Assembly (NCBI GenBank): GCA_938075155.1
Contig: CALJGL010000023.1
Location: 42,987-106,986 of the forward strand
Origin: an uncultured bacterium
GTDB lineage: Bacteria > Planctomycetota > UBA8108 > UBA1146
Length of the DNA: 64,000 bases
Reading direction: 5' to 3'
In this document: positions 34,060-64,000 of the stretch, piece by piece
Position numbering within the stretch: position 1 is the first letter of the stretch
How the letters are laid out: the number at the start of each line of letters is the position of its first letter
Position numbers and translations under genes: made by a program
The notes under the pieces: model-generated
Seen by the model: only the letters and a program-made list of their open reading frames with translations
The model's database searches: none
Told to the model about the DNA's origin: nothing

Positions 34060-34508
34060 ACCCCAATTTCTTCAATTCAACTTCAGTATTCAAATGCGGT
34101 AATATTTCAATGATCCATGCATTTGAATGTTTAACAATTGGGACTGGTTTATCCGTATAGGTGCCCGGAAATGCCTTCCTAGTGGCATTGGCCGCTTTTT
34201 TGTATGCCCGGAATATGCTTGAGTTGTCTTAATGTATTGTTAATATTGCGTTATTAGTCATTCGGTTTGTAGGGATATTGTAAGCCTGCATGTTAGTCGA
34301 TTGGGTGGCTGAAACGCATTGGCACAACGACGATAGCGGAGTTTCTACGACTCTGATTCGTCCTAAATTCCCCAACTTCGTTTGGGGAGAAATGGCTTCA
34401 GCGAGCCATCTGGGAGGAGACGAAATGTCAGATCTTCACATGAAGTCTGTACACACTGTTTCTAAGAGATTCGAATCCAAAGAATCTTGGCAGGGCAGTG
34501 ACGTCAAA

Positions 34509-48171: not shown

Positions 48172-50127
48172 ATGTTATTTTTGGAGAACTCGATGAAGTT
48201 CACTAGTGCTCTGGTGGGAAGATCTTATCTATGGCTGCTTTTCGTCGCATGCCTCCTAGGCGATGGACGTGAATCCTACGCCCAATTTCAAATTAGCAGT
48301 CCTGTTCCCACTTCTGTTGGTATCACAATTGCGGCCGCGGTTATATCGGACGTCACAGGTGATGGCATTGTAGATCTGTGTTCTATCGATGCCGGTGGCC
48401 AAATTGTAATTGCTACAGGGTTTGGCGATGGGGTTCATGGAGAAATCCAATCCTTCGACTATGGAGCTGGCATCGATGGTCTTGTCAGAGCGATCGCTGC
48501 TGGTGATTTGGATGCAGACGGAGACGAAGATCTTGTCTTTACGTGGTCTCATCCTCTTGGCGTGGGAGGATTTCTCTCGATAGTGCCCTTTGAGTTAGGA
48601 ATCCCGGGTAGTCGAATTGATTTCTCTCTTGATCAACAAGTCAACCGCACCCCATTTGATATTGAGGTGGGGGATTTGAATCAGGATGGTCGCCTTGATT
48701 TAATCGCTGGTACAAACATTCTTGACCAGGCGTTTCAGCCGGCCTATGTATCTGTGCTTATGGGTGATGCTGCTGCAATACCGGGAGTGATGTCATTTGA
48801 AACTCCGGTGCACTATTTCAGGTCTTCGATGGTTAGGGATGTCCATTTGGAGGACCTTGATGCAGATGGTGATCATGACGTCATCATGACTTGTAGAGGC
48901 GGGAATAGCCTTTCAGTTTTCGAGAATGTCGGCGCAGGAATACTCACATTCGCTTCAGAAACATTATTCCCTCTATCGCCTGAACCCTATGCGGTGAAAA
49001 CAACCGATCTTGATGGAGACGGTGTCATGGATATTCTCTTGGGGACATGGCAGACGAAATCCCTGATCCCATTGTTGGGCTTGGGAAACCTTCAATATTC
49101 TCGTCAAAACGAGATTGAATTGGGGCAATTGGGTTGGGGGGTGATGCACCGATTCGAACTTGAAGATATGAATGGAGATGGCCACCTTGATGCCGTTGCT
49201 CCTTTCTCAAGTGGAGTGATTTCTATCCACTATGGAGATGGAGAAGGGGATTTTGAACCCGGGCCTTTCTTTGTCACTTATCAAAGTGCCAAGTCTCTGT
49301 GGTTTCATGATCTGGATAATAGTGGAACTCGGGAGATGGTTTTAGAGCATACTGATCTGAAGCTCTTTACGACATTCTTTGGAGCTTTTGAATTGCGAGG
49401 GCATGTCTATTTTGATTCCCAAAGAATTCCGGCAGGTCTGGAGTCTGATCTGGTTCTTAAAGGGATCGCAAACCTTGGAATCAGAGGGATTGATACTGCC
49501 ATCGATATTGATAGAGCCCTCTTGATCCCATTGGATTTAGTACCCTCTCAAGCTGTCATGTTGGCCACTGGAGGGCTTGGCCCGGATTTTTGGTCCGTAG
49601 ACCTCGGGGTAAATCCTCAGGACCCTGTGACTCTCAGTTCGATTCTTCAGGGAAATGGTCAGGGTGGATTGGGTGCTGGGCTGATCAATGAGGTTGCGAT
49701 TCTTGGAGTGCAGACTGCTTCTCTTTCGAATCCAATACAGACGACGATAGCTCCTGCTCCTTTGAGTATCGGTGGCCCAACGCTCTCCTTGACTGGTGGC
49801 ATATCTACCTCTGTGAATGCAGGTACTGGCTGGTTGGATATTGAAGTACCCAAAAGGTTTGTTCGAGGAGACGTGAATCAGAATGGTGACGTTAATGTGG
49901 GAGATGCCGTCATTCTATTGAGAAGACTCTTTGGATTGGATTCTCCGGGACAGTGTCTTGCAGCCGAGGATGCTGACGGAGATGGAGCGACTGATATTGG
50001 TGACGCGGTTCGAATTCTGACCTACTTGTTCTCTAGTGGAATCCCTCCCGTTGAGCCATTCCCAGGGTGTGGTTTGGCAGCTGACCCATTACTCATTGAA
50101 TGTGAATTTCATTCCTACTGCCCATAA
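48172..50127 (+). CDS. Secreted FG-GAP/VCBS-repeat (integrin-alpha-like beta-propeller) protein with a C-terminal dockerin-like module
   Basis: Signal peptide. FG-GAP Ca-binding loops (DLDADGDEDLVF, DLNQDGRLDLIAG, DLDADGDHDVIMT, DLDGDGVMDILLG, DMNGDGHLDAVA). C-terminus RGDVNQNGDVNVGDAVILLRRLF...EDADGDGATDIGDAVRILTYLFSSGIPPVEPFPGCG...C...C. Confidence 0.75.
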   Translation: MLFLENSMKFTSALVGRSYLWLLFVACLLGDGRESYAQFQISSPVPTSVGITIAAAVISDVTGDGIVDLCSIDAGGQIVIATGFGDGVHGEIQSFDYGAGIDGLVRAIAAGDLDADGDEDLVFTWSHPLGVGGFLSIVPFELGIPGSRIDFSLDQQVNRTPFDIEVGDLNQDGRLDLIAGTNILDQAFQPAYVSVLMGDAAAIPGVMSFETPVHYFRSSMVRDVHLEDLDADGDHDVIMTCRGGNSLSVFENVGAGILTFASETLFPLSPEPYAVKTTDLDGDGVMDILLGTWQTKSLIPLLGLGNLQYSRQNEIELGQLGWGVMHRFELEDMNGDGHLDAVAPFSSGVISIHYGDGEGDFEPGPFFVTYQSAKSLWFHDLDNSGTREMVLEHTDLKLFTTFFGAFELRGHVYFDSQRIPAGLESDLVLKGIANLGIRGIDTAIDIDRALLIPLDLVPSQAVMLATGGLGPDFWSVDLGVNPQDPVTLSSILQGNGQGGLGAGLINEVAILGVQTASLSNPIQTTIAPAPLSIGGPTLSLTGGISTSVNAGTGWLDIEVPKRFVRGDVNQNGDVNVGDAVILLRRLFGLDSPGQCLAAEDADGDGATDIGDAVRILTYLFSSGIPPVEPFPGCGLAADPLLIECEFHSYCP

Positions 50128-50190: not shown

Positions 50191-50769
50191 CTAGGCGCGA
50201 AGTTCGCTTCCAGCTAGGCGCACTACTCGACGAGCGAGTTCTTCCGGGTCAAAAGGTTTGGCGAGAATGTCGTCGGCACCCAAGAGGCGGGCTCTGTCCA
50301 ACTCGGCTTGCTCCATGGCACTGATCACCAAAATCTTGGTCTTGCTCAGTTCTGGGGCGAGTCTGACATATTCAATGACGTCGAATCCACCTAGACCAGG
50401 AACTCGAAGATCGAGTGTCATCACGCATGGGAGGTGCTCTCTCAAGAGTGATCCCGCAGTGAAGCCATCCTGAGCCATGAATACATCAAAGTTATGTTTT
50501 CTCAGGGTGATTTCGATGGCTTTGGAGACGGTGGGTTCTTTCTCGACGACGAGTACTCGACGCGCGAGGTGCAGGAAATCTCTCGGAATGGGAATGTTGT
50601 TTTCCCTTAGAAACGAGATGAAGTTGCTGATTTCGACGCGGTTATCTCCACGACCGGGCAGCTGATATGCACGTAGCTGACCACGCTGAATCCAGCGAAT
50701 AACTGTACGAAAGTTTACGCCGCAATAACTGGCGATTTCTCCCGTAGTAAGGGTTCTCTTATCGTTCAT
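50191..50769 (-). CDS. Response regulator with reversed architecture: N-terminal MerR/excisionase-type HTH and C-terminal receiver domain. The ORF track extends to 50814; the start at 50769 has a GAGGAG SD 7 nt upstream.
   Basis: HTH in LTTGEIASYCGVNFRTVIRWIQRGQLRAYQLPGRGDNRV. Receiver-like C-terminal half (VLVVEKEPT..., VMTLDLRVPGLGGFDVIEYV, KILVISAMEQ, DDILAKPFDPEEL) with a conserved Asp in TLDLRVPG and K in AKPF. Confidence 0.7.
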   Translation of the reverse strand: MNDKRTLTTGEIASYCGVNFRTVIRWIQRGQLRAYQLPGRGDNRVEISNFISFLRENNIPIPRDFLHLARRVLVVEKEPTVSKAIEITLRKHNFDVFMAQDGFTAGSLLREHLPCVMTLDLRVPGLGGFDVIEYVRLAPELSKTKILVISAMEQAELDRARLLGADDILAKPFDPEELARRVVRLAGSELRA

Positions 50770-51026
50770 CCCACACTCCTCGCACATTACTCTACCTCGG
50801 TTAACAAATTTCAACTCGCAATGAAATTTGTAGTGAAGTCGGAAATCCCAATTGTCGTAACTGATTGATTGGGTGCAGGTTCCGGCTTCTCTTGTAAATC
50901 AACTATACACATATTGTATGTTTGTTAGTCATTTTGTCAATAGTTAGGAATGTCTATATCCGGTCCTGCAGTCCCGATTGGCCAAAAAATACCGGAGTGA
51001 ACTCAAGTTCTTTATGTGTGTCTTAA

Positions 51027-53195
51027 TCAAGGACAGTTTTGTCCTGTTTGGCAGGGAAGGAAATCTTGTGTCGGCGTATCAATTCCACAAGTCGCTCCCG
51101 GTGCTGCCGGTGCTAAGCCACCTGAATAAAGAAAGAGAAGCATGAATACAGGGTCACTGATGTCGATGTTTCCATCATCGTTCGTATCCACAGCATCTAA
51201 ACAGGTGTGATTTACAGATTGGAACAGGATGGAAAGCTGAGAGGAGACATCCGCTAGGTTTCTAATCCCGTCCAAATTGACATCTCCACGAATAAACAGT
51301 GGGCCTGGACTCGGACAAAAGATCTGACAGCTGACGGGCAGAAGAAGAGCTCCACAGGTACTGACGGGTGTCAATATCGCTGTCGTATTCAATCCTAGAG
51401 GCGCAGGGAGTGTGACCGAGGTTACATTTCCCGGGAGGGTCAGTGAGGTCGCACCCAGTTGAAGATTAATAGAACTGTAACTGGATTCATTCACCCATGT
51501 CAGATCAGCGATACAGGTTGCTGTATCGAGATTGCAGATCAAATTGGAGATAGGGATCTGTGGAATCAGAGGAGGAACATTTATCTCACAACAACTTGCG
51601 CCTGTTGCGGGGGTGAACCCTCCCAGACTCGGTTCGACACAGTATGTCATCATTCCTGATAAACCTGGATCGTGGACGAGTGAAGTTTCGGTTCCTAATA
51701 CCGTCGTGATTGGCAATAATTGGGAGGGATCAGGTCCACCTGAAATGAGGAAAAAGTCTGCGGGGCCAGCGGACTCCCAATTCAGAGTGACTTCTTGCGA
51801 GCAAGGGTTGGGAATGCTGCATGAGAAATCGAGAAGAGGGAGAGGTCTTTGATCGTAGAAGATCGCTCCTAGGTCAGGAGCTGTGTTGTCGGGGTCTAAT
51901 CCGTACAGAGGGTCACCTGCGTCGATGGCGGGAGAATTGGGATCTAGTGAGAAATCTTCAATGAGTGGGTTCGTAAATACGGGGTCGAAGAGGAACACTG
52001 TTGATCCGGGATACCCCGAGGAAATGACGCTGTAGTCGACCTGCGCCAATGTTGGAATATCGATCTCCAAAGTAACTGGATTCCATAATAGGCAGTGATT
52101 CACAAGCAAGGTCGATAAAGCTCCTCCTGAATTTGTTGGAGGATAGAACACTCCTCCTGAACTTCCTCCTGAACTTCCTCCAGAGGTGTTTCCAGTGATG
52201 GTTGACCTGTGTATTTCAACTTCGGTCAGGTTGATCGTGGAAGCGATCGCACCACCATTGGTATTCGCGGTATTCGAAGCGATGATACTGGAGTTGATGC
52301 TGAGGGTTCCGCCGTCGAGTCCAATTCCTCCACCGCGGCTACTGAAGTTTCCTATGATAGATGAGGAATCGATCGTCGTCGTACTTTGATAAAGGGTGAT
52401 TGCTCCACCCAAAAGTGAAGCTTGATTATTACTCAGCTGAAGATTCGACATTGTGATGGCGGAGATTCTCGAATAGATTCCTCCTCCAATAATGGCGGAG
52501 TTATTCTGAAAGCTACATGTGTTGATGCTGACTTGAGAGCACAGATTGAGAGTGATTCCTCCTCCGGCTGTCAGTGAAGAGTTATTACTGAAGCTACAGT
52601 TCTGAAGATTGATGACTCCACAGTTGGACAGGTAGATTCCTGCGCCCTCCAATGCGTTATTGCCTGAGATCGACACATCGGAAAGATCGAGTGAAAGCGT
52701 TTCTTCTGCATAGAGCCCAGATCCGAATTCAGCAGAATTCCCACTGAGGACACAGTTTTTGATGGTGGGGGAGGCGATAAATATTCGAATCCCGCCCCCT
52801 CGTCGGTAAGTTCCAGAAGAATCGGTAATAGGCCTTCCCGTTCCTCCTGTGATTGTGAATCCGTCTAGTATGGCGAGTTCGGTTTCTCCACCGGAGAAGG
52901 TGACAGTGGCTCCTTCATCAGGGCCCAGAGTGAGCAGTGATCCATCGATCGTCGTTTGGTCTGATCCTGCTGTGGAAAGGATGGAGATGTCTTTTCCTAT
53001 GTATGAGAGGTTTTCTTGGTAGGTGCCAGGTGAGACTAAGATCTGGTCGCCCGAATAAGCAGCGAAGATCGCTTGCTGAATGGTGGGGTACTCCGAGGGG
53101 ACCAAGAGGTCGATCGCTTCTGCCTGTGTTACTGAAAAGCATAAGAAGAGAATCGATAGCATCGATTTCAGCGGTTTCAGGAGATTCAATGTCAT
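51027..53195 (-). CDS. Secreted right-handed parallel beta-helix (pectate-lyase-fold) protein with a C-terminal dockerin-like module
   Basis: Signal peptide MTLNLLKPLKSMLSILFLCFSVTQAEA. Numerous beta-helix rung repeats (NNSAIIGGGIY, GNFSSRGGGIGL, NTANTNGGAIA). C-terminus RGDVNLDGIRNLADVSSQLSILF...DTNDDGNIDISDPVFMLLFLYSGGLAPAAPGATCGIDTPTQDFLPC...C. Confidence 0.75.
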   Translation of the reverse strand: MTLNLLKPLKSMLSILFLCFSVTQAEAIDLLVPSEYPTIQQAIFAAYSGDQILVSPGTYQENLSYIGKDISILSTAGSDQTTIDGSLLTLGPDEGATVTFSGGETELAILDGFTITGGTGRPITDSSGTYRRGGGIRIFIASPTIKNCVLSGNSAEFGSGLYAEETLSLDLSDVSISGNNALEGAGIYLSNCGVINLQNCSFSNNSSLTAGGGITLNLCSQVSINTCSFQNNSAIIGGGIYSRISAITMSNLQLSNNQASLLGGAITLYQSTTTIDSSSIIGNFSSRGGGIGLDGGTLSINSSIIASNTANTNGGAIASTINLTEVEIHRSTITGNTSGGSSGGSSGGVFYPPTNSGGALSTLLVNHCLLWNPVTLEIDIPTLAQVDYSVISSGYPGSTVFLFDPVFTNPLIEDFSLDPNSPAIDAGDPLYGLDPDNTAPDLGAIFYDQRPLPLLDFSCSIPNPCSQEVTLNWESAGPADFFLISGGPDPSQLLPITTVLGTETSLVHDPGLSGMMTYCVEPSLGGFTPATGASCCEINVPPLIPQIPISNLICNLDTATCIADLTWVNESSYSSINLQLGATSLTLPGNVTSVTLPAPLGLNTTAILTPVSTCGALLLPVSCQIFCPSPGPLFIRGDVNLDGIRNLADVSSQLSILFQSVNHTCLDAVDTNDDGNIDISDPVFMLLFLYSGGLAPAAPGATCGIDTPTQDFLPCQTGQNCP

Positions 53196-53595
53196 TCCTC
53201 CATGGGTGCATACGTGTATGGGTCTCAGCGGGGTTACTTCGGTATAGCCTTACTTCCATTTGGCAATCTTGGTGGGCTATCTAGGCTATCGTTAGTAATC
53301 CCATTGTACACCTATGTATGCACATTTATATGTTGGGGCGAGGTTCATAGGGAAAAGGCATAAGTGGCAATAACCACTGCTATTTGTCACTTTGGGCGAA
53401 AGTATCTTCTTCCGGGTAATATTTCCGGTTCTATTCATTGATCTTTGGCAGGATAGACAAAAAACTCGCCCTAGTTACAATCGGGCATACGAACTCTTTT
53501 TGTTAACGACTGCTCCCCGGCTGGCCGTGGCACTTTGCCCAGACCAGTTTAGGAGTCGTAAAGATCCAATGGGGCCATTGCCCCGCGGAGGACCG

Positions 53596-55029
53596 ATGCT
53601 GAACCAAAGCCGAATCTTCTCCAAGTTCTGTTTACTCGTCTGCGTTGTGGGCCTCCTCGGAGGTTGCTTCGGACGCAGTTCAAAGATCCAGGCACCTGCT
53701 CCCTTCAGTTACCCCCAGCAAGATTGGGTTTTGACGGTCGGTGATCCGATAGAGATCCCTGCACCCGAGATTTTCGGTCCCGTCCCTCTAGGGTGGGCAG
53801 TGTCACCGCAGTTACCAGCAGGTCTTTCATTCAATGAAGACAATGGTTCGATCTCCGGAATTCCTCAGGAGCCGTGCCCTCGGAACTTCTTTACGGTGAC
53901 GGCTTCGAACTTTGGTGGACAAACGAGCTATGGCATCTCCATCAGAGTATTACCAGAGGCTCCCTGTGATCTTGCATACCCCGTCACAGAGGTGACAGGC
54001 GTTCTTGCGTTTGCAGAGTTTCCGACTCTCGTCCCCTCCCTCGGTTGTGGAGGTTCGAACGATTACAGTATTGATCCCGCATTGCCTGAGGGTCTTTTGC
54101 TCGACATGTACACAGGAATCATCAGTGGAACTCCATTGATCAGTCATGGTCCACAAGAACATCAGATCACTGCGAGTAACGAAAGTGGCTCTGCAGTAAC
54201 GAGTTTGTTGATCGAGATCTTGCCTGCAGGCCCATGCGGACTCGTCTATGAAGAATCCGACAAAGTTGTTGCTCCAAATGCTGATATGGATCCGATTCTT
54301 CCGACCGTAGGTTGTGGAGAAGCTGAGATTTGGGAGATTAACCCTTCCTTGCCAGCTGGAGTAAACCTTGATCCCGCGACCGGAGTGATCAATGGTAATC
54401 CTTCAGTCGAGACCAATAGAATCGTCTACACGATTACCGCTTCAAATGAACATGGATCTGACAGTACTGAAGTAGCTTTACGTATCTCTCCAGTGTTCAT
54501 CTTTGAAATCGATCAACTGAGTGGATCCTTCAATCCTGAAACAGGTGAAGGTGGAGCTCAGGCCAGAATCATTTTGACTGAGGGAGAAGATAACGAGACT
54601 TTCCCAACGCAGATTCAACTGCTGTCTCTGGCATTGGCGCACGATCCCGAAAGTTTGGACGTCACTTCAATCGAACCCGGAGAAGACCTTGCAGGGTTGA
54701 ACGGTGGAGAGGGCCCCGACTTCTTTACGCCGTTCGAAACGTCGACAGGATTTACCCTTGGAATCGTGTTTTCCTTTAGTCCTGATTTCCCTGGAATCAG
54801 CGCAGAAACTCCGACCGAGATCGCTGTTGTTAACTACGTGACCGTTCCTGAAAACACCTCTGGAGATGCGGATTCAATCCTATCCAGTTTGGCGTGGGGA
54901 AATCCCGTAGCAGGTCAACCTGGTGTTCCCTATGTCGAGAACACCGTCGTATTAGATGGTGTGACCGGGATTCTACCTGTGACCATTGATAACAATGTTG
55001 AACTGGTTGCGGAAACTTCTGGCGAGTGA
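53596..55029 (+). CDS. Lipoprotein with about four He_PIG (putative Ig) repeats and a C-terminal cohesin-like domain (candidate scaffoldin). The ORF track begins at 53392; Met 53596 has a GGAGGA SD and gives lipobox LLGGC.
   Basis: Signal and lipobox MLNQSRIFSKFCLLVCVVGLLGGCFG. Repeats with PCDLAYP...LGCGG...IDPALPEGLLLD..TGIISGTP. C-terminal about 175 aa with ...LNGGEGPDFFTPFETSTGFTLGIVFSF..., shared with the next two genes. Confidence 0.7.
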   Translation: MLNQSRIFSKFCLLVCVVGLLGGCFGRSSKIQAPAPFSYPQQDWVLTVGDPIEIPAPEIFGPVPLGWAVSPQLPAGLSFNEDNGSISGIPQEPCPRNFFTVTASNFGGQTSYGISIRVLPEAPCDLAYPVTEVTGVLAFAEFPTLVPSLGCGGSNDYSIDPALPEGLLLDMYTGIISGTPLISHGPQEHQITASNESGSAVTSLLIEILPAGPCGLVYEESDKVVAPNADMDPILPTVGCGEAEIWEINPSLPAGVNLDPATGVINGNPSVETNRIVYTITASNEHGSDSTEVALRISPVFIFEIDQLSGSFNPETGEGGAQARIILTEGEDNETFPTQIQLLSLALAHDPESLDVTSIEPGEDLAGLNGGEGPDFFTPFETSTGFTLGIVFSFSPDFPGISAETPTEIAVVNYVTVPENTSGDADSILSSLAWGNPVAGQPGVPYVENTVVLDGVTGILPVTIDNNVELVAETSGE

Positions 55030-55086
55030 TCAACTTCACATTTTTGAATCTAGTCATACTAACGAAGTTATCTTTGAAGAGGAAAA

Positions 55087-58083
55087 ATGATCAGGTTCAT
55101 CCCCCTTATCCTGATGTTACTACTACTAGTTGTCCCCGGCTGTGGGGGCGGTACCGGTGGACCTCAATTGGAAGTTATTCCACCCCAAACAGTGGAATAC
55201 TTCGGATTGGGCCCGTTTCTTCTCGGCAAAGAAATTGTTGCAGTCGAACCCTTCATTTCGGGGGGGCAGCCTGACAACTGGACAGTCTCTCCAGAATTTC
55301 CTGCAGGGGTCTTGCTGAATCCCGAAACAGGTGTGATATCAGGAGTTCCCGAAGAGGTTCACTCTCCCACTCCGCATACCATCATGGCTCAAAACTCTAG
55401 CGGTCATTTTGTAATTACAGTAATGATCAGTGTTCTACCCACGACTCCCTGTGGATTAAGTTATGAAACAGAATCTATTCAGGTCATTCTTGGTGAACCT
55501 GTCGGCCCATTTGTTCCTTTGTACGGGTGTGGGCCTGTTCAGCTCTGGACCATTATTCCGCAACTGCCAGAAGGGTTATTGTTTGACTCTTCAACGGGCA
55601 ACATCAGTGGTGTAGCGCAAGTGACCCAGCCTCTGACTGAATATCTGGTGAGTGGTTTTAATCAATTTGGCTCCGCCAGCACGATATTGGCGCTTGAGGT
55701 CATTGGCCCTCCACCCTGTCAACTGACATACGAAGTAGAGACTGTTTCGCTCTCTCAAGGACAAACCTTGGAACCACTGCTTCCAGCTGTCGGTTGTGGA
55801 GATGTGATACTGTTTTCCATCGATCCCGCTTTGCCGGTGGGTTTGAGTCTTAATGTTTCAAATGGGATTCTCTCCGGAGAAGCAGGGGGAGTTCACCCAC
55901 TCACTCAGCATGAAATAATGGCGAGCAATCCTGCAGGATTCACAAGCTTCACCATTTCTATTGAGGTCTTGGTCGAGCCTCCATGCAATCTCCAGTATCC
56001 CGAGTCTGAGATGACTTTGACCGTTGGAAATATTTTGGCCGACGGATTCTTGCCGACATCTGAGTGTGGACCAATTAGTCAATATTCGGTAGATCCAGCG
56101 TTGCCAGAAGGCCTTCTCTTGAACCCGGAGACGGGCGAATTATCAGGAACTGTCCTGGAGGAACAATCAGAGACTGATCATGTAATTCGAGCGTCTAACT
56201 TAACTGGTTTCACGGAGTTCCTTCTCGGTTTGGAAGTTCATCCAGAACCTCCATGCGATTACGAATATTCGGTGAATACATTGGATCTGGAAGTGGGTAC
56301 GCCTCTTCAGGTGCTTGCTCCGCAAATCTCTTGTGGACTGCCGACGATATTTGAGTCGTTTCCTGTCCTGCCTGCTGGAATCCAATTGGATTCACAATCT
56401 GGCGAGATTTCAGGACAACCGTTGGAGACATTGAGCGGAATGGTTTTCACCTTTATCGCTTCAAACATTTCGGGTGTTTCGACGACAACGCTTGAGATCC
56501 AAGTATTGCCAGAGCCACCCTGTGATTTTCAATACCCCAGTGACCAGATTCAGTTAACAGTCGGTCATTCCTTATCACCGCTCGTACCCTCTACAGATTG
56601 TGGATCACCGACGAGCTACACTGCTCTTCCTCCACTTCCCTCGGGGATCATTCTTGAGGTCACGACAGGAATCATTTCAGGGATTCCCCAATTCGTAGGG
56701 GGACCCACAAGTCATGTCATCCTTGCCGGAAATGTATCTGGAGATGTGAGTTTTCCAATAGAAATTGAAGTGATCGAGGAAGCTCCTTGTGACCTTACAT
56801 ACCCAGTATTGAATCTAACCTTGGAAACTGGGCAAGAAGTTGGACCTCTGAATCCTTTAGTCGGTTGCGGAGTTCCGACAGAGTGGGTTGTTTCTCCCTC
56901 TTTACCCTCCGGATTGTCTTTGGACCAAATGACAGGGACTCTTTCTGGAACTGTACAGGAGACGCAAGTCACATCTTCTTACCAGATAGAGGCTTCGAAT
57001 GGTGCGGGTTCAACGTATTTCACACTTGAGATTGAAATCCATCACCCTGCACCATGTGGGCTGACCTATTCTTCCTCACTGATTGAACTTTTTTCGGGTG
57101 AAGATTTAGCACCCATGATCCCAAATGTGGGTTGTGGACCCGTAGAAGAATACAGGATTGATCCGCAGTTGCCTGAGGGATTAACTCTCGATCCTATGTT
57201 AGGAATTCTGCAGGGGACTGCTCAAGGAGAAAGTCCTATTATCGAGTACGTGATTTCTGCTTTGAATCCGACGGGTGCTTCTGATTTTCCAGTACTGATA
57301 TCCATCTTTGGAGCAGCACCCTGTGATCTTCAGTACCCTGAAACAGTTATTGCTGCACCAGTGGGCACTCTTATTGAGCCACAGGTTCCAGTTGTTGACT
57401 GTGGAGTTGTTTCTACTTGGAGTATTGAGCCTCCTTTGCCAGGTGGAATGGAATTCGATACGACTTCTGGAGTGATCAGTGGAGAAGTACTTTCTGAAAT
57501 AGAATCCCATCACACCGTGACTGCTTCCAATGGATTTGGAGATGTTCAATTCGAGCTGACCCTTGTTTTTCGATTGATATATGAATACAGAGGATCAGAA
57601 CTCGTCGTGCCATATTCCATTGCAGACGGTGTGGGTAGCGGGTCCTTCACGTTGACAGCCCAAGAGAGTGAATTGAATCCGGGCTATCCTACTTCTCTCT
57701 CAGGGATTTCAATGGCGATTCAGTACAACTCAAATCTTCTTCAATTTGTGGATGCCGTTCAGACTCCAGAAACTGCTGCGCTAAACGGGGGCGAGGGACC
57801 TGATTTTTGGGCGATAAACCCCATCGACGGGGGTGTCCTCATAGGCATGCTTGTTTCGTTTAGTTTTGTTGATTCCCTTATACTTACTGATGAAACCCCG
57901 ATTGTGAATCTGAGCTTGCAGACACAGCCAGAGGCTTTCATTGGGGATAGCGTTGGAGTCGCGGGTCAACTTATATGGGGGAATCCCACCACTATTCCTC
58001 TCGACAATCTGATTGTCATCGACGGGGCTAATAGTTCGATCCCGGTGATGGAATCCGTCCCCTTCTTGATCCAACCTCAATAA
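55087..58083 (+). CDS. Large lipoprotein with about nine tandem He_PIG repeats of ~95 aa and a C-terminal cohesin-like domain (candidate scaffoldin)
   Basis: Signal peptide MIRFIPLILMLLLLVVPGCGG. Nine modules of consensus PPC.L.Y......L..G.....P...CG........DP.LP.GL.L....G.ISG......... C-terminal 170 aa (57571-58080) contains LNGGEGPDFWAINPIDGGVLIGMLVSF. Confidence 0.75.
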   Translation: MIRFIPLILMLLLLVVPGCGGGTGGPQLEVIPPQTVEYFGLGPFLLGKEIVAVEPFISGGQPDNWTVSPEFPAGVLLNPETGVISGVPEEVHSPTPHTIMAQNSSGHFVITVMISVLPTTPCGLSYETESIQVILGEPVGPFVPLYGCGPVQLWTIIPQLPEGLLFDSSTGNISGVAQVTQPLTEYLVSGFNQFGSASTILALEVIGPPPCQLTYEVETVSLSQGQTLEPLLPAVGCGDVILFSIDPALPVGLSLNVSNGILSGEAGGVHPLTQHEIMASNPAGFTSFTISIEVLVEPPCNLQYPESEMTLTVGNILADGFLPTSECGPISQYSVDPALPEGLLLNPETGELSGTVLEEQSETDHVIRASNLTGFTEFLLGLEVHPEPPCDYEYSVNTLDLEVGTPLQVLAPQISCGLPTIFESFPVLPAGIQLDSQSGEISGQPLETLSGMVFTFIASNISGVSTTTLEIQVLPEPPCDFQYPSDQIQLTVGHSLSPLVPSTDCGSPTSYTALPPLPSGIILEVTTGIISGIPQFVGGPTSHVILAGNVSGDVSFPIEIEVIEEAPCDLTYPVLNLTLETGQEVGPLNPLVGCGVPTEWVVSPSLPSGLSLDQMTGTLSGTVQETQVTSSYQIEASNGAGSTYFTLEIEIHHPAPCGLTYSSSLIELFSGEDLAPMIPNVGCGPVEEYRIDPQLPEGLTLDPMLGILQGTAQGESPIIEYVISALNPTGASDFPVLISIFGAAPCDLQYPETVIAAPVGTLIEPQVPVVDCGVVSTWSIEPPLPGGMEFDTTSGVISGEVLSEIESHHTVTASNGFGDVQFELTLVFRLIYEYRGSELVVPYSIADGVGSGSFTLTAQESELNPGYPTSLSGISMAIQYNSNLLQFVDAVQTPETAALNGGEGPDFWAINPIDGGVLIGMLVSFSFVDSLILTDETPIVNLSLQTQPEAFIGDSVGVAGQLIWGNPTTIPLDNLIVIDGANSSIPVMESVPFLIQPQ

Positions 58084-58355
58084 GTAAGAGGTCTTAGGAT
58101 TTCGGCATTTAAATCACAAATGTCAGGAAATAGATAAGATATCTTCCCCTCGAAATGTTAAAATATTGAGTCATACCTTTATGAAGGTGTAATGTTATTA
58201 GTATTCGTGAATCCTTTTGTCGCTATGTATTACAAGAGGACTGTTATTTATTGAAGTCGTTTCACCTTGGGCGATGACCTGTGCTATGAAATTTAATATG
58301 AGTCTATTTCAGACAACTGAATAGCCTGATCTATTTATTCATAAGATTAAAAAGG

Positions 58356-59735
58356 ATGTTTTTCATGATCCATGTGCAATCAAAAATATTGACTCTGGTT
58401 CTACTGACCACTTTTTGTTGCTCTGACCTGAGTTTTTCACAGGTACATACCCTTACTGCCGGAACCGGATCTGTTCTTCCTGGGGGCACGGTTAATATTC
58501 CCGTATTGTTATCCAACGACGAAGGCGCTCGTGGATACAGCATGGGAGTTTCTCATTCAGGAACAGACCTGACCTTGACCGCAATGTCTCCAGGACAGGA
58601 AGCAGCGGATGCGAATGCAGGCACCGGCCCAGATTTTGAATTCATTGATCTAAGTCCTACGGGTGGATCCGGAGGAACCTACGGTTGTATTTTGAGTACT
58701 GGAGCGCCTCTTGACGAGATCGCAGTGGGGACCAATAACGAGATTGTGTTATTGAGCTACAGTTGCTCTGGGGCCGCAGCGCCTGGAAGTATTACATCAT
58801 TCAATTTCTCAGATACTCTGGGAACTCCCAACGTTCAGACTGTCATTAGTGTTGTCGCAGGTGGTACCTCTATCAGTCGTATTCCGACGAAGGTAGGGGG
58901 ATCTGTATCTGTTGATACCCCTCCCGTCACCGGATTGAGCTGTTTACTCAGTGACCCTTGTCTCTGTGACTTCAGTCTTTCCTGGTCGAATGCTATGACC
59001 TACGACAGTATCGAGATTACGAATGGTTCTGGAGCTGTGATTCAGACCCTTGCCGGTACAGCTACGACTGCTGTTGTCTCTATTAGTGGCACGACAACGG
59101 GTGGTCTCGCCTCTGATAACCTTTCTGTCAGAGGAATCTCCAACGCCGTGACGAGTGCAAATGCAACTTGTACTGCAACATGTCCTGTTGTGGATTTGCC
59201 CACTGCTCCAGCTGGAGTCTCCTGTTCTGTGAATCAGTCAAATGGTGAGACGACTGTTTCTTGGACCAACTCTTCTACTTACGCTGCGATAGAAGTCCGT
59301 TTGGATGGCGCATTGGTGGGAACGCTGGGGGGTGGTGCAACTTCGACCACTGTCACCATTGGTGGCCCCGGAAGTTACTCAGTTTCAGTGAGTGGTAGCA
59401 ATGTTTGCGGTGCTCTTTCCTCAGCAGGCTCTTGCACAGCTGTTCGCGATAACTTCTTTATTCGCAATGATATCAATCAGGACGGAACTCAGAATATTGC
59501 TGATCCGGTTCAGTTGCTTGATTTCCTCTTTGGTGGAGGAAGCGTGAGCTGCCTTGATTCTGCAGATGTGAATGATGACGGTACTAATAACATTGCCGAT
59601 GTTGTTTACAGTTTGAATGTGATCTTTGGAATCTCAGTAGGCGGAACTGTTCCGGTCGTTCCGGCACCAGCCTCCGCCTGTGGTGGAGATCCCACTGCGG
59701 ACGGTCTCGATTGCGCTTCCTTTAACGGTTGCTAA
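58356..59735 (+). CDS. Secreted protein with an N-terminal cohesin-like domain, Fn3-like modules and a C-terminal dockerin-like module (candidate adaptor)
   Basis: Signal peptide. N-terminal GGTVNIPVLLSNDEGARGYSMGVSHSGTDLTLTAM...GTGPDFEFIDLSP...ILST...KVGGSVSVD, compare C. thermocellum CipA cohesin GDTVNIPV...GIANCDFVYSYDPNVLEI...KSFDTAVY...IVFLF...FDGGVNV. C-terminus NDINQDGTQNIADPVQLLDFLFGGG...VNDDGTNNIADVVYSLNVIFG...CGGDPTADGLDC...C. Confidence 0.7.
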   Translation: MFFMIHVQSKILTLVLLTTFCCSDLSFSQVHTLTAGTGSVLPGGTVNIPVLLSNDEGARGYSMGVSHSGTDLTLTAMSPGQEAADANAGTGPDFEFIDLSPTGGSGGTYGCILSTGAPLDEIAVGTNNEIVLLSYSCSGAAAPGSITSFNFSDTLGTPNVQTVISVVAGGTSISRIPTKVGGSVSVDTPPVTGLSCLLSDPCLCDFSLSWSNAMTYDSIEITNGSGAVIQTLAGTATTAVVSISGTTTGGLASDNLSVRGISNAVTSANATCTATCPVVDLPTAPAGVSCSVNQSNGETTVSWTNSSTYAAIEVRLDGALVGTLGGGATSTTVTIGGPGSYSVSVSGSNVCGALSSAGSCTAVRDNFFIRNDINQDGTQNIADPVQLLDFLFGGGSVSCLDSADVNDDGTNNIADVVYSLNVIFGISVGGTVPVVPAPASACGGDPTADGLDCASFNGC

Positions 59736-59745
59736 TCTAGAATCC

Positions 59746-59795
59746 AACACCGAAAAAATCCTCCTGCACAGCAATGTGTAGGGGGATTTTTTTAT
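59746..59795 (+). terminator. Terminator-like imperfect hairpin plus T-run after the island, before the convergent liu cluster
   Basis: atcctcctgcaca-gcaa-tgtgtagggggat followed by TTTTTTT. Confidence 0.55.
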
Positions 59796-60667
59796 GAGAT
59801 CTCTCGGGGTTGATTGGAAAACCAATTTGCAGTTTCTGCCAGTGAAGAAGCGGAGACACCGGTAGCGACTCCTAATTGATCAAAGAGGGCCACCAGAGAT
59901 TCCGTCGAAACATTACCCGAAGCATTTGGGGCAAAGGGGCAACCACCAATGCCTCCTGCTGAACCATCGAATGACCGAATCCCTGCTTCCCAGCCGGCAT
60001 GAGCACTCTCAACGGCTTGTCCATGGGTGTCATGGAGGTGTAGGGATATCTTTGAGGTGATGACTTCAGCCGAGAGTTCCGAATTGAGTTGGTGGGTGAG
60101 CTGGAGGACATGCTCAGGAGTAGCACTTCCAATAGTATCTGAGATGACTATCTCGTGTGCGCCCAAATCCAGTAATTCTCGCGTCATGTACAAAACGTCA
60201 CTCCCCTCGACCTCACCCTCAAATGGACAACTGAAGCAACAGCTGAGATACGCTCTGAGGGGTTGGGAATCAGCCGCGACAACCAAGCTTTTGAATCGTT
60301 CCAATGAATCTTGTCGTGAACATGAAGCATTTTTCGTACTGAATGTTTCTGTTGCTGACGTAAAAAATGCAAAGGCCGAAACTCCAGAATTTTGTGCCCG
60401 TTCGAGCCCTTTGAGATTGGGAACTAACGCCCAGGCAAGAAAATCTGAGTTCTTGATTTTTGTAAAGAGTTGATCGCTACTGGCCATGGCGGGAACTCTG
60501 TCAGGCCTGACGAATGCTCCACACTCAATTTCAGAAAGGCCGGATTGAGAGAGTCGGGTGATCCACTCGAGGCGGGTCTCTATGGACAGTCGGTAGTCTA
60601 AGCTTTGAAGACCATCTCGTGGGCCCACTTCAACCAGTCGGACTGTTCCTGATTTCTGATCAGTCAT
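59792..60667 (-). CDS. Hydroxymethylglutaryl-CoA lyase. Start at Met 60667 overlaps the upstream gene's stop by 8 nt.
   Basis: VRLVEVGPRDGLQS at the N-terminus and an HMGL-like TIM barrel. About 290 aa. Confidence 0.85.
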   Translation of the reverse strand: MTDQKSGTVRLVEVGPRDGLQSLDYRLSIETRLEWITRLSQSGLSEIECGAFVRPDRVPAMASSDQLFTKIKNSDFLAWALVPNLKGLERAQNSGVSAFAFFTSATETFSTKNASCSRQDSLERFKSLVVAADSQPLRAYLSCCFSCPFEGEVEGSDVLYMTRELLDLGAHEIVISDTIGSATPEHVLQLTHQLNSELSAEVITSKISLHLHDTHGQAVESAHAGWEAGIRSFDGSAGGIGGCPFAPNASGNVSTESLVALFDQLGVATGVSASSLAETANWFSNQPREIS

Positions 60668-61124
60668 TTTGCTCCTCCTGATTTCGCTCCTCCCGATTCT
60701 GCTCATCTTCAGACAAAACGACCAGAGATTTACCCTGAGCGACAGAGTCTCCCACATTCACGAGCACTTCTTGAATCCGACCGGGTGCCGGAGCCTTCAC
60801 AGGGAGTTCCATTTTCATGGCCTCGACAACAACCAGTATTTGACCTGCGGAAACTTCATCTCCAACTTGAACCTTAATCTCGAGAACTGTTCCGGGCATA
60901 GGGGAGACCGTCGATCCGTCCGTAGAAGAATTCCCGGCTTCTCTGAGAGGTTCGAAAGTTGTTTGGTAATGACCTTGCCAACTGAATCTGGGTCGGTTGG
61001 CAGATCCCGTTAGGACGAATCGGTGTTGCTCTCCGTTCCTCTCTACAAAGAGGATAGGAGGGGTCCAGTCGAGGATTTTCCAGTCGAGGATTTTCCAGTC
61101 ATGATCTTGCCTGTCAGTGTTCAA
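60660..61124 (-). CDS. Biotinyl/lipoyl carrier domain protein. This is the BT plus BCCP part of methylcrotonyl-CoA carboxylase alpha. It is either a separate gene coupled by ATGA or the frameshifted 3-prime part of the upstream gene.
   Basis: Biotinylation motif EAMKMELPVKAPAPGRI. The start ATG overlaps the TGA of the biotin-carboxylase ORF as ATGA. Contains a 15-nt in-frame tandem duplication (DWKILDWKILDW). Confidence 0.75.
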   Translation of the reverse strand: MNTDRQDHDWKILDWKILDWTPPILFVERNGEQHRFVLTGSANRPRFSWQGHYQTTFEPLREAGNSSTDGSTVSPMPGTVLEIKVQVGDEVSAGQILVVVEAMKMELPVKAPAPGRIQEVLVNVGDSVAQGKSLVVLSEDEQNREERNQEEQND

Positions 61125-62659
61125 GGCAGTACCCCCTCGAGATTGTCCCAGCAGGTCCCACGTCGCCTCTGACGGCTTTTTTGCGATTTAGTCCCAGTGG
61201 TCAGAACTTTCTTGGCCATGGATCTGAGAGGGGTCTCCCAGCTCTCAGGGATCACAGGTGAGCACCATTCACCCCAATCGGTTTCTATCATTCGGGTGTA
61301 AAACTTCCCGGATGAAAATTCCTCTGATTTCAATAGGTCTCTCCCGAGCGAGATGGAGGTTTGGAGTGGAGAAATGGACGTACAGTCGATCGCTTGAATC
61401 AATCTGTCCTTTGCCTGCTCTCTGGTGTCACCTGTCGCGATGATTTTTGCCAGCATGGCATCGTAATAGGGCGTCACTGTATCTCCTGAGCGAATTCCAG
61501 AATCCACACGTATTCCCTCAAAAGAGGGCCAGCAACAATCAAGAAGACGGCCGGTGCTAGGAATGAAATTTTCACTCGGGTTTTCAGCATTGACCCGAAT
61601 CTCAATGGAGTGCGCACAAGGAGATTTCCCATCCAGGTTGGAAGGGAGTTTCTTACCGATGGCAACCATCCATTGTAGTTCGACGAGGTCGACTCCGTAG
61701 GCTTCTTCGGTGACAGGATGTTCGACTTGAAGCCGGGTATTCATTTCAAGGAAGTAATAATTTTCTCCTGAAGAGTCCAAAAGAAATTCTACGGTTCCTG
61801 CTCCTCTGTAATTCACGGAGATCGCCAGATTTTTGGCGGCACTATGCATCAGTTTTCGAATATCTTTTTCAATATGTGGAGCAGGTGCTTCTTCCACCAG
61901 TTTTTGATGGCGGCGTTGAAGAGAGCACTCTCGATCACCTAAAATTGCAACATCACCGAATCCATCCCCGACAACTTGCACTTCAATATGACGTGCGGGT
62001 TCGATCAATTTTTCGAGAAAGAGTCTGTCGTCGTTGAAGGAGGAAAGAGCTTCTCTGCGAGCAGAATGAATGGCTTCCTTCAACTCACTTGAATCCCGAA
62101 CGATTCTCATCCCTTTTCCGCCACCACCAGAAACGGCTTTGACCAGAAGAGGGTAGTCGATGATCTCAGACTGGCGTGTCCAGTCCTCTAGGGAAGGCTC
62201 TGCATTCTTGTGTTCCAGTTTCTCGGGAGACCATGCTGGAGTACATGGAACTCCAGCGGCTTCCGCCAACTTTCGAGCGGTGACCTTATCTCCCAAATCT
62301 CTGGCTTGTTCAGAAGTAGGGCCAATAAAGATCCACTTCTCCGATTCTACAGCAGTGGCTAGATCAGGGTTTTCTGATAAGAATCCCCATCCTGGATGCA
62401 GTGCTGTTGCTGAGAGTTCCTTTCCAGCTTCGATGAGTTTATCGAGTCTGAGATAGGATTCATTCGAGGGTGCAGCCCCGATATTGATGGAGAAGTCTGC
62501 CTCTTCGACAAAAAGCGCCCCTTTGTCCGCGTCGGAGTAGACAGCGATTGTTTCTACTTCCAGTTTTCTGAAAGTACGAATCAGTCTTCTTGCCGCTTCG
62601 CCGCGGTTGGCAATCAGAACTCTGTGAGTCGCAGAATCTTGATTAGAGTTCTTCGGCAT
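61121..62659 (-). CDS. Biotin carboxylase subunit or domain of methylcrotonyl-CoA carboxylase (alpha)
   Basis: ATP-grasp biotin carboxylase motifs (RVLIANRGEAARRLIRT, GGGGKGMRIV, biotin carboxylase C-terminal domain). 512 aa. Confidence 0.9.
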   Translation of the reverse strand: MPKNSNQDSATHRVLIANRGEAARRLIRTFRKLEVETIAVYSDADKGALFVEEADFSINIGAAPSNESYLRLDKLIEAGKELSATALHPGWGFLSENPDLATAVESEKWIFIGPTSEQARDLGDKVTARKLAEAAGVPCTPAWSPEKLEHKNAEPSLEDWTRQSEIIDYPLLVKAVSGGGGKGMRIVRDSSELKEAIHSARREALSSFNDDRLFLEKLIEPARHIEVQVVGDGFGDVAILGDRECSLQRRHQKLVEEAPAPHIEKDIRKLMHSAAKNLAISVNYRGAGTVEFLLDSSGENYYFLEMNTRLQVEHPVTEEAYGVDLVELQWMVAIGKKLPSNLDGKSPCAHSIEIRVNAENPSENFIPSTGRLLDCCWPSFEGIRVDSGIRSGDTVTPYYDAMLAKIIATGDTREQAKDRLIQAIDCTSISPLQTSISLGRDLLKSEEFSSGKFYTRMIETDWGEWCSPVIPESWETPLRSMAKKVLTTGTKSQKSRQRRRGTCWDNLEGVLP

Positions 62660-63461
62660 TGTCGGATCCGGTCGTCAACCATGGGGGGGTGGTTTTCTCA
62701 AGAAAAGCCCTGAGGCCTCCTTGTGCCTCAGCGGTGGCACGTCTTTCCGAAATGCGCAGCGAAGTCAAGTTCTGAAGCTGTTCTATAGAATCGAGAGCGT
62801 CTACCTCTCGAATCAATGACTTGGCTGCACTGACCGCTTCGGGGCCGCCGGCAAGAATGGCATCAATGATGTGGGCAATAGTTTCATCGAGCTTGTCGTC
62901 ATCGCAAACCTCGTGAATCATCCCGATACGATGTGCGGTTTGCGCATCAAAACGCTCCCCGGTTAGAAACCACCGACGGGCTTCCCCTGCACCTATTTTA
63001 TGGATCGCATAAGGAGAGATCACAGCTGGAATAATCCCAAGTCGAACCTCACTGAAGGAGAAAACACATGATTGTGCTGCGACGGTGATATCTCCTGCAC
63101 AGACAAGACCTGTACCTCCACCGATGGCTGCCCCGTGAGCACGAACGATCACAGGAAATGGCGCTTCAGAGATGGTTCTAAACATCTCCGACATTCGGAA
63201 AGCATCTTCTCTGTTCTGTTCAGGAGTGAGGTCGATGGAGTCTTTCATCCAATTTACGTCTGCTCCTGCAGAGAAAACCTTGCCTTCACCAGACAGTACA
63301 ACAACTCTGACATCGGGATCTGTAGAGAGTGAAGCAAAGGTATTGGTTAATTCTGAAATCAAGACAGCATCGAACGCATTCCTCACTTGAGGGCGGTTCA
63401 GAACAACATCGACTCGATCTGCTGATCGGCGAACTTCGATGGTTTTTTGAGTCTCGGACAC
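62643..63461 (-). CDS. Enoyl-CoA hydratase/isomerase (crotonase) family, likely methylglutaconyl-CoA hydratase
   Basis: Crotonase-fold motifs (VVLSGEGKVFSAGADV, GAAIGGGTGLVCAGDI). Sits inside the liu-like cluster. Confidence 0.8.
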   Translation of the reverse strand: MSETQKTIEVRRSADRVDVVLNRPQVRNAFDAVLISELTNTFASLSTDPDVRVVVLSGEGKVFSAGADVNWMKDSIDLTPEQNREDAFRMSEMFRTISEAPFPVIVRAHGAAIGGGTGLVCAGDITVAAQSCVFSFSEVRLGIIPAVISPYAIHKIGAGEARRWFLTGERFDAQTAHRIGMIHEVCDDDKLDETIAHIIDAILAGGPEAVSAAKSLIREVDALDSIEQLQNLTSLRISERRATAEAQGGLRAFLEKTTPPWLTTGSDNAEEL

Positions 63462-63470
63462 AAGAACCTC

Positions 63471-64000
63471 CTACATTCGGTAGATGCCGACTTTTCTCTC
63501 CTCTAGGGGGGCGCATGAAGCCGCTTCTATTCCAAGTCCAAGAATGTCACGGGTCATTGCGGGTTCGATGATGCCATCATCCCAAAGACGAGCAGAAGAA
63601 TACCATGGGCTACCCTCATGAGAGTATTTTTCGAGAATGGGGAGCGTGATGGCCTCTTCTTCTTCTGGGCTGATGGTTTTGCCTGTTGCAGAGAGTTTAT
63701 CTTTTTTGATTTGAAGAAGGACTTGGGCAGCTTGATCACCTCCCATCACGGAAATACGTGAGTTAGGCCACATCCACATCTGTCTGGGTTGAAATGCTCG
63801 TCCACACATTCCGTAGTTTCCGGCACCATGGGATCCTCCAATGATGACGGTGAATCTCGGTGAAGGGGAGTTGGCAACGGCGTGCACAAACTTAGCGCCG
63901 TCCTTGGCAATCCCTCCTTGCTCATAATCTTTTCCCACCATAAATCCCGTAATGTTTTGAAGGAAAATAATGGGGAATCCCCTCATGGAACATAGATCAA
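63471..64000 (-). CDS. Methylcrotonyl-CoA carboxylase beta subunit (carboxyltransferase). Partial: the N-terminus lies beyond the window end.
   Basis: Carboxyltransferase C-terminal region [58 protein letters not shown]. The ORF is open at position 64000. Confidence 0.8.

Follow-up and report, generated by a model that had tools for sequence, protein, structure and literature searches.

Pairs of cohesin and dockerin modules are best known from the cellulosomes of Gram-positive anaerobes, and the roles proposed for them elsewhere are almost all conjecture. The cellulosomal scaffoldins of Bacillota (OlpA, OlpC and SdbA of C. thermocellum, ScaB and ScaC of A. cellulolyticus, ScaC and ScaE of R. 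flavefaciens) include cell-bound proteins that end in a cohesin, adaptors that combine a cohesin with a dockerin, and tandem cohesins followed by one dockerin. We describe here a locus with the same three kinds of protein among its products and their relatives. It comes from a marine Planctomycetota metagenome-assembled genome (MAG), on a 64,000-nucleotide stretch of contig CALJGL010000023.1 that was analyzed as a whole and that we call the window. Three consecutive genes between positions 53596 and 59735 share a domain that we identify as a divergent cohesin. The first two genes are predicted to encode lipoproteins that carry the domain at the end of an Ig-like stalk, and the third a secreted protein that carries it together with a dockerin. 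The trio probably represents a membrane-anchored, non-cellulosomal cohesin-dockerin assembly.

A non-cellulosomal cohesin/dockerin system, the 'planctosome', has been hypothesized in freshwater Planctomycetes of the Nemodlikiaceae (Andrei et al. 2019, ISME J, PMC6461901). Its anchor is a protein of 2,210 amino acids (aa) that is tethered by a lamin-tail domain (LTD), contains P-domains and ends in a cohesin; its adaptor combines a dockerin, a hyalin repeat (HYR) and a cohesin, and its cargo consists of M12B and M14 peptidases (PMC6461901). The present locus resembles the planctosome in its cohesin-ended anchors, its dockerin and cohesin adaptor and its non-cellulolytic candidate cargo. It differs in having two He_PIG lipoprotein anchors, Ig/Fn3-like linkers in the adaptor, and cargo that is adhesin-like or of the heme-protein kind; furthermore, no LTD anchor, P-domain, HYR adaptor or M12B/M14 peptidase was detected by Pfam in the window proteins scanned. 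The assembly is most likely a variant of the planctosome, sharing its principle and differing in its components. A literature search found no experimental follow-up of the planctosome, and both it and the present locus are predictions.

Non-cellulosomal cohesins of known structure include those of Archaeoglobus fulgidus (2xdh) and of the GH84 and GH33 proteins of Clostridium perfringens (2o4e, 2vo8, 2jh2). In each of these cases one module sits on an enzyme or a small protein, whereas the planctomycete locus presents a conserved, operon-like trio and a scaffoldin-like family. Non-cellulosomal cohesins and dockerins are reportedly widespread in bacteria and archaea, according to a 2009 survey by Peer et al. 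A literature search for cohesin systems anchored naturally by lipoproteins or to the outer membrane yielded only reviews and papers on engineering, and we know of no natural example of a conserved trio with lipoprotein stalks and a large scaffoldin-like family. The module pair and its scaffolding logic are known already; the cohesin subfamily, the anchoring device and the cargo differ.

A sequence-only reading of the window had proposed that three consecutive open reading frames (ORFs), all on the forward strand at 53596-55029, 55087-58083 and 58356-59735 (genes 1, 2 and 3), share a domain, situated in the C-terminal ~170 aa of the first two products and at residues ~28-190 of the third. Both the ORFs and the shared domain, of about 165 aa, are borne out, the latter by BLASTP and by a hidden Markov model (HMM) of the family. 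The C-termini of genes 1 and 2 are 32% identical over 147 aa (E 8e-17), and the gene 3 domain aligns with that of gene 1 at E 1e-7 and with that of gene 2 at E 1e-3. The family HMM locates the domain at ~54493-55020, 57577-58080 and 58443-58928 with E-values of 1e-40 to 3e-46, that is, within a few residues of the boundaries first given, and the motifs pointed out in that reading are all present (LNGGEGPDFF/W, GTGPDFEFIDLSP, and LGIVFSFS or IGMLVSFS). The similarity of the three segments is above chance. The three copies first counted stand, and a fourth, which had been missed, was found at 49399-49866 by motif scan, HMM (E 8e-20) and BLASTP (E 2e-5 against the gene 2 domain). This copy, marked by a GGLGPDFW motif, has four FG-GAP repeats before it and a dockerin that is significant in Pfam after it. 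It is the most divergent of the window copies and groups outside the two sequence subtypes of the family, a (that of genes 1 and 2) and b (that of gene 3).

Gene 1 (53596-55029, +), whose product is 477 aa long when translation starts at the ATG that yields a signal peptide, is predicted from its ORF, He_PIG modules and lipobox to encode a short anchor lipoprotein. It consists of a signal peptide with the lipobox LLGGC (Cys24, nt 53665-53667), three He_PIG modules (aa ~33-303) and the C-terminal cohesin-like domain of subtype a (54499-55026, +; family HMM E 2.8e-46). Its annotated start varies in public data, with forms of 409, 477 and 545 aa (starts 53392/53596; locus L001, 5445-6674), and only the 477-aa form opens with a signal peptide and lipobox. 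Gene 2 (55087-58083, +; 998 aa), a putative long anchor lipoprotein by the same features, has a signal peptide with Cys19 (VVPGC-GGG, nt 55141-55143), nine He_PIG modules of ~89 aa and a C-terminal cohesin-like domain, also of subtype a (57571-58080, +), which is the copy used for structure modeling. Gene 3 (58356-59735, +; 459 aa, or 456 aa in most database copies) would encode a secreted adaptor: a type I signal peptide, with cleavage at about SFS-Q, is followed by the N-terminal cohesin-like domain of subtype b (58437-58926, +; family HMM E 2.8e-41), two linker modules (aa ~191-365), a dockerin (aa ~366-426) and a Cys-rich tail. In public records the window proteins are named 'hypothetical protein' or 'Ig domain-containing protein'.

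From the domains of the trio, recognized cohesins are reached through intermediate sequences and profiles. In family member P0004, the third copy of the domain matches Pfam Cohesin (PF00963) at E 2.5e-11 (44.4 bits, cut-off 24.1); P0035, which has an architecture like that of gene 3, matches Cohesin at 8e-5 and Dockerin_1 at 2.7e-6. Over the family alignment, 11 of 69 domains match PF00963 at E<=0.01, with essentially no rival family. Profile searches of the PDB give the same picture. Built from the four window copies only, the profile has a suggestive, though non-significant, full-length match to the cohesin 5nrk_A (E 0.15); the whole-family profile retrieves cohesins only, with 5lxv_A first (E 3.8e-5), followed by 1g1k, 3l8q, 2vn5 and 4dh2; and the profile of subtype b, that of gene 3, yields 21 matches, all of them cohesins and 12 at <0.01 (best 5lxv_A, E 3.7e-7).

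Structure prediction provides an independent line of evidence. The gene 2 domain, modeled by AlphaFold2 with the 69-sequence family alignment, came out as an all-beta sandwich with a pLDDT of 96.3 and a pTM of 0.90. The predicted fold is a nine-stranded flattened beta-sandwich (jelly-roll) that superposes on solved cohesins. In the Foldseek comparison with the PDB that the sequence-only reading had proposed, ranks 1-35 are all cohesins, including 1ANU, 1AOH and 1OHZ, and structural Z-scores run from 16.2 to 10.5 for cohesins against 9.7 for the first non-cohesin. The closest structures are Coh-OlpC (4dh2), CaCohA2 (6kgc), ScaC (4uyp) and ScaB (5nrk), so that the fold is the one shared by the scaffoldins of Bacillota. 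Rather than falling into an unrelated beta-sandwich family with no cohesin matches, the outcome on which the initial proposal was to be abandoned, the domain led to cohesins with profiles and Foldseek alike; its identity as a divergent cohesin is therefore supported, by sequence profiles and by a structure model.

The family is marked by an NGGxGPDF(F/W) loop that hardly varies among its members and that lies between main strands 4 and 5. In canonical cohesins, the dockerin is bound by the sheet of strands 8-3-6-5. In the gene 2 model, the conserved positions GFSxGLxHD, NGGxGPDFF, GxTxGxVxSF and LGxPPVxN lie on main strands 3, 5, 6 and 8 or next to them; mapped by strand order only, they may correspond to this dockerin-binding sheet.

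Six C-terminal dockerin modules are found in the window from 29 to 60 kb, the region that also contains the four cohesins. Each consists of two tandem F-hand calcium-binding loop-helix segments (Dockerin, PF00404), and in the alignment both DxNxDGxxxxxD loops are present in all six. The dockerin already proposed for gene 3 is confirmed by phmmer, which matches it to the PDB dockerins 3ul4_B, 2mte and 1daq at E 0.009; with its tail it occupies 59451-59732 (+) and comprises two Ca-loop motifs (DINQDGTQNIAD and DVNDDGTNNIAD), after which comes the Cys-rich tail CGGDPTADGLDC...C. An extra Cys in the linker between the repeats and a tail of the form PxxPxxxCGxDPTxDxLxCxxxxC are seen in five of the six dockerins, the dockerin of 29105-31558 being without the Cys-rich tail. 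This pattern of cysteines suggests disulfide-stabilized dockerins. Ahead of the dockerin, gene 3 (58927-59450) and a second dockerin protein, encoded at 51027-53195 (aa ~452-595), have linker modules in common (BLASTP E 2e-7). These are two consecutive Cys-containing, Ig/Fn3-like modules of ~85 aa (SCxxxxxCxxxLxWxNxxxYxxI...) for which there is no Pfam model. The linker pair may accompany the dockerin in the manner of an X-module, and the arrangement is reminiscent of the X-dockerin dyads of Bacillota. The NGGxGPDF loop, cohesins that escape Pfam, and the Cys-rich tail and extra Cys of five of the six dockerins set the planctomycete modules apart from those of Bacillota.

The anchoring device differs as well. 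Genes 1 and 2 both start with an apparent signal peptide that ends in a lipobox with a +1 Cys; lipoboxes and signal peptides were judged by pattern inspection. The lipobox of gene 1 reads LLGGC-FGRS, and L[IL]GGC-FGRS is kept in 12 of 12 orthologs; that of gene 2 reads VVPGC-GGG, with L[AS]GC-GGG in the orthologs of every locus. The lipobox Cys itself is kept in every ortholog of both genes, the orthologs being 40-97% identical. In gene 3 and its orthologs we observe instead signal-peptidase-I-type sites (..AQ-VHT), and the mature protein should therefore begin at the cohesin. The stalks are formed by tandem He_PIG modules (PF05345) with a period of ~89 aa, well above the Pfam cut-off of 24 bits in gene 1 (E 1.3e-25, 90.1 bits, three stretches) and gene 2 (E 2.8e-54, 182 bits, nine stretches). 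The array of nine modules initially assigned to gene 2 is thus correct, while Pfam and a dissection of the repeats give three modules for gene 1 and not four. Similarly, the Cys pair PCxLxY...CG attributed to each module is absent from the first module of each array and present in the other two of gene 1 and the other eight of gene 2. In Bacillota, by comparison, the anchors are C-terminal SLH or sortase signals and the hosts are Gram-positive anaerobes; here the host is a diderm planctomycete, and an N-terminal lipid and a He_PIG stalk would hold the cohesin at the far C-terminus. We found no description of an N-terminal lipid with a He_PIG stalk of variable length for natural scaffoldins.

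A search of GTDB representative genomes with gene 3 recovered 17 full or partial orthologs, at 54-97% identity, and two dockerin-only matches. Their sources are mostly marine MAGs of Planctomycetota/Planctomycetia, among them bins from the Black Sea, the Mediterranean, Saanich Inlet, the Antarctic and the North Atlantic and UBA1146 bins. The sequence-only reading had raised the question of whether such loci keep the three genes together: they do in 13 of the 13 loci with enough flanking sequence, always with the short He_PIG-cohesin gene first, the long one second and the cohesin-dockerin gene last. In several loci the FG-GAP copy lies upstream of the trio. Orthologs of gene 1 always have three He_PIG modules, and those of gene 2 have 9 to ~20 (1001-1992 aa) with the terminal cohesin kept throughout. 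The idea of a lipid-anchored stalk gains support from this retention of the terminal domain on stalks of 9 to ~20 modules and from the lipoboxes found in all orthologs. Among gene 2 orthologs, identity is slightly higher in the cohesin than in the stalk (44-68% vs 39-52%); in gene 3 the dockerin ranks first (68-86%), the cohesin second (59-73%) and the linkers last (44-76%). The synteny of the trio and the high conservation of the dockerin may be counted in support of selection on the unit as a whole. Orthologs of the trio also occur in MAGs labeled otherwise, namely locus L018 (QNYK01000074.1, 'Bacillota bacterium') and NCG56324.1/NCG56323.1 ('Proteobacteria bacterium'). Since all other trio orthologs belong to Planctomycetota, mis-binning or mislabeling is the likely cause.

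The cohesin-like domain extends far beyond these loci. An exhaustive HMMER scan of 1.84 billion representatives (clusters at 50% identity) placed 684 representative clusters in the family at E<=1e-3 and 245 at E<=1e-10. A word-indexed protein search is nearly blind to it, with one match for the gene 3 domain and four for the 69-sequence profile. We surveyed the architectures of the 150 best family representatives. The commonest, observed in at least 65 of the 150, is a signal peptide, one to four tandem cohesins and a dockerin tail of ~90 aa. Proteins that end in the cohesin and have no dockerin almost always start with a lipobox, and their stalks are made of He_PIG, PKD or low-complexity Gly sequence. 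The family appears to divide into lipoprotein-stalk-cohesin 'anchors' and signal peptide-cohesin(s)-dockerin 'scaffoldins', an arrangement that would follow the logic of anchoring scaffoldins on the one hand and of adaptor or primary scaffoldins on the other. Subtype a accounts for 34 of the 37 anchor-type domains. As far as sequences tell, this is a sizeable cohesin subfamily that Pfam largely misses, with scaffoldin-like tandem arrays predicted in many members. The largest scaffoldin-like member seen, P0006 (1676 aa), has a choice-of-anchor I domain (PF22494, E 8e-93), five tandem cohesins and a dockerin-like tail. One sequence, P0001 (ENA, 173 aa), was omitted from the alignments: it is a fragment that is identical to the gene 3 N-terminus over ~70 residues and unrelated thereafter, probably a frameshifted or chimeric assembly.

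The other dockerin proteins of the window are candidates for what such an assembly would carry. The FG-GAP protein (48172-50127, +; 651 aa; FG-GAP_3 E 5.5e-28), which contains the fourth cohesin-like copy and a dockerin at aa 566-619 (nt ~49867-50028; Dockerin_1 27.5 bits, above the 22.9 cut-off), seems from its modules to be a cohesin and dockerin adaptor itself. Four other dockerin proteins are candidate payloads. One, of 722 aa (51027-53195, -), is a beta-helix (PMP/NosD-like) protein with weak Pfam matches to Chlam_PMP and NosD, two linker modules, a C-terminal dockerin recognized by motif and a Cys-rich tail. Another, of 1498 aa (41982-46478, +), has eight cadherin-like/Big_9 domains (Big_9 5e-134), a C-terminal dockerin and a Cys-rich tail. 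The third (34290-39176, +; 1628 aa) is a di-heme cytochrome c peroxidase/MauG-like protein (CCP_MauG 6.9e-18) with an RGI-lyase beta-sheet domain and a C-terminal dockerin (Dockerin_1 7e-4); it also holds a RoxA-like cytochrome c motif, and is an unusual redox enzyme for docking. The fourth, of unassigned type (29105-31558, +; 817 aa), has a dockerin above the Pfam cut-off (Dockerin_1 4.7e-7, 30.3 bits). In this 64-kb window Pfam detects no glycoside hydrolase or carbohydrate-binding module on the dockerin proteins, in contrast to the cellulosomes of Bacillota; neither dockerin-bearing carbohydrate-active enzymes nor a cellulose-binding scaffoldin was recognized there, and the locus is hence not a cellulosome.

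In the assembly that we propose, an acylated N-terminal cysteine would fix the products of genes 1 and 2 in a membrane, disulfide-braced arrays of He_PIG Ig-like modules would serve as a short spacer (three modules) and a long one (nine), and the divergent cohesin at the C-terminus of each would act as a docking socket. The calcium-binding dockerin of gene 3 would plug into a cohesin, most simply that of the gene 1 or the gene 2 anchor, and its N-terminal cohesin would offer a new socket to another dockerin-bearing protein. Further cohesins that extend the assembly could come from gene 3, from the FG-GAP protein and from scaffoldins with several cohesins that are encoded elsewhere in genomes of this kind. 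Candidate cargo within 30 kb would include the FG-GAP, beta-helix, eight-cadherin-like, di-heme peroxidase-like and 817-aa proteins, and adhesin-like and redox proteins would be displayed in modular fashion, possibly in several tiers, at two distances from the membrane. The proposal starts from what the sequences and the model show, namely homologous domains with a cohesin fold, conserved lipoboxes, dockerin motifs, a syntenic trio and an architecture that recurs across the family; from the co-occurrence of the modules we infer that the window cohesins bind the window dockerins, and in which order they would pair.

We may also hypothesize a broader system, which we regard, all its parts taken together, as rather unlikely: a multi-tier, lipoprotein-anchored network in marine planktonic Planctomycetota, in which anchor cohesins at different heights would recruit cohesin and dockerin adaptors. 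Stalks of 3 and of 9 to ~20 Ig-like modules would set the two heights; the adaptors (gene 3, the FG-GAP protein and scaffoldins with two to five cohesins) would form head-to-tail chains or branches and build up a coat or fiber layer; and this layer would show adhesins and redox enzymes and not carbohydrate-degrading enzymes. Such a system, with its distinct NGGxGPDF cohesin subfamily and disulfide-stabilized dockerins, would be the first lipoprotein-based scaffoldin system to occur naturally in a diderm bacterium.

The locus is in any case a compact and conserved test case that lends itself to experiment. It comprises two anchors, a single adaptor and several candidate cargo proteins, and it belongs to marine Planctomycetota that are abundant and uncultured, in a phylum of ecological importance that is poorly understood. 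If the predicted binding is true, the planctosome idea gains substance, a handle is obtained on how planctomycetes organize their surface or periplasm, and orthogonal cohesin-dockerin pairs with disulfide-braced dockerins become available for protein engineering.

On which side of the envelope the assembly lies bears on this proposal. We place the complex on the cell exterior by assumption, because lipoprotein sorting in Planctomycetota is not understood, and this counts against the proposal as it stands. The same cohesin-dockerin assembly might be periplasmic, with its lipoproteins on the inner membrane or on the inner leaflet of the outer membrane, and would then organize enzymes and binding proteins in the large planctomycetal periplasm. 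Diderm lipoproteins face the periplasm by default, and the periplasm of Planctomycetota is enlarged; moreover, one candidate cargo protein belongs to the di-heme cytochrome c peroxidase/MauG-like enzymes, a typically periplasmic class, and no secretion-system gene was recognized beside the trio. We nevertheless think this location unlikely, if worth keeping in mind. Cadherin-like, FG-GAP, beta-helix/PMP-like and He_PIG domains are typical of surface or extracellular proteins, and a stalk of 9 to ~20 Ig-like modules would span tens of nanometers, a length that better fits a position beyond the envelope; neither argument is decisive.

Several further observations weigh against the proposed assembly, wherever it is located. 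None of the four window segments matches Pfam Cohesin at E<=10, nor do the whole proteins at E<=1. The structural evidence comes from a confident model of the gene 2 copy only; a model of the gene 3 domain, for which the alignment consisted of the four window copies only, was unusable (pLDDT 35.9). The NGGxGPDF loop is without counterpart in aligned canonical cohesins, in a gap-rich region of the alignment, and may point to another ligand. With 12.1 bits in Pfam, the gene 3 dockerin falls below the cut-off of 22.9, and the lipobox of gene 2 in the window has an atypical Pro at position -2. Finally, many dockerin-bearing proteins contain subtype a too, as in those with the order 'b-a-dockerin', so that specificity classes are unreadable from sequence. 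A clean separation of anchor and adaptor cohesins into type I/type II-like classes, which we considered, is unsupported, as subtype a occurs in both roles.

Some of these points would be expected if the domain had kept the fold and ancestry of a cohesin and lost its binding to dockerins. It would then be a terminal ligand-binding or adhesive head (for glycans, minerals or homotypic contacts) on an Ig-like stalk, and the dockerins nearby would pair with something else or serve only to bind calcium. The nearly invariant loop and the missing direct Pfam match agree with such a change of function, and a position at the tip of a stalk is typical for adhesin heads. Cohesin-like folds reportedly also occur in non-docking contexts such as the TMEM132 adhesion molecules. 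We find it hard to reconcile this view with the domain and a dockerin standing in one polypeptide in most family members, with six dockerins within 30 kb of four cohesins, or with two to five tandem copies followed by one dockerin, which is a hallmark of scaffoldins and not of adhesin heads, and we consider a loss of docking improbable. A chance resemblance, in which the domain would be a beta-sandwich of a generic Ig-like or pilin-like kind, or else a sorting domain at the C-terminus, is far more improbable and effectively refuted by Pfam relatives, PDB profiles and Foldseek: a clear Z gap separates cohesins (16.2-10.5) from non-cohesins (9.7), sequence profiles independently retrieve cohesins only and relatives pass the Pfam Cohesin cut-off, and a sorting signal is excluded because the domain also occurs N-terminally and in internal tandem arrays.

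Other features of the window are of less direct bearing. A promoter and terminator scan of 53100-59900 gave fewer sites than shuffled controls and is uninformative on operon structure. Between the dockerin genes, at 50191-50814 (-), lies a response regulator that opens with an HTH_17 (excisionase/MerR-like) domain and ends in a receiver; it is kept at the same position in locus L001 and is a possible local regulator. Downstream of the trio, 59792-64000 (-) is occupied by a leucine-catabolism-type cluster with HMG-CoA lyase-like, enoyl-CoA hydratase and carboxyltransferase genes. In this cluster a 154-aa biotinyl-carrier protein (60660-61124) overlaps a 512-aa biotin carboxylase (61121-62659), and the carboxylase alpha subunit appears to be split across two ORFs.

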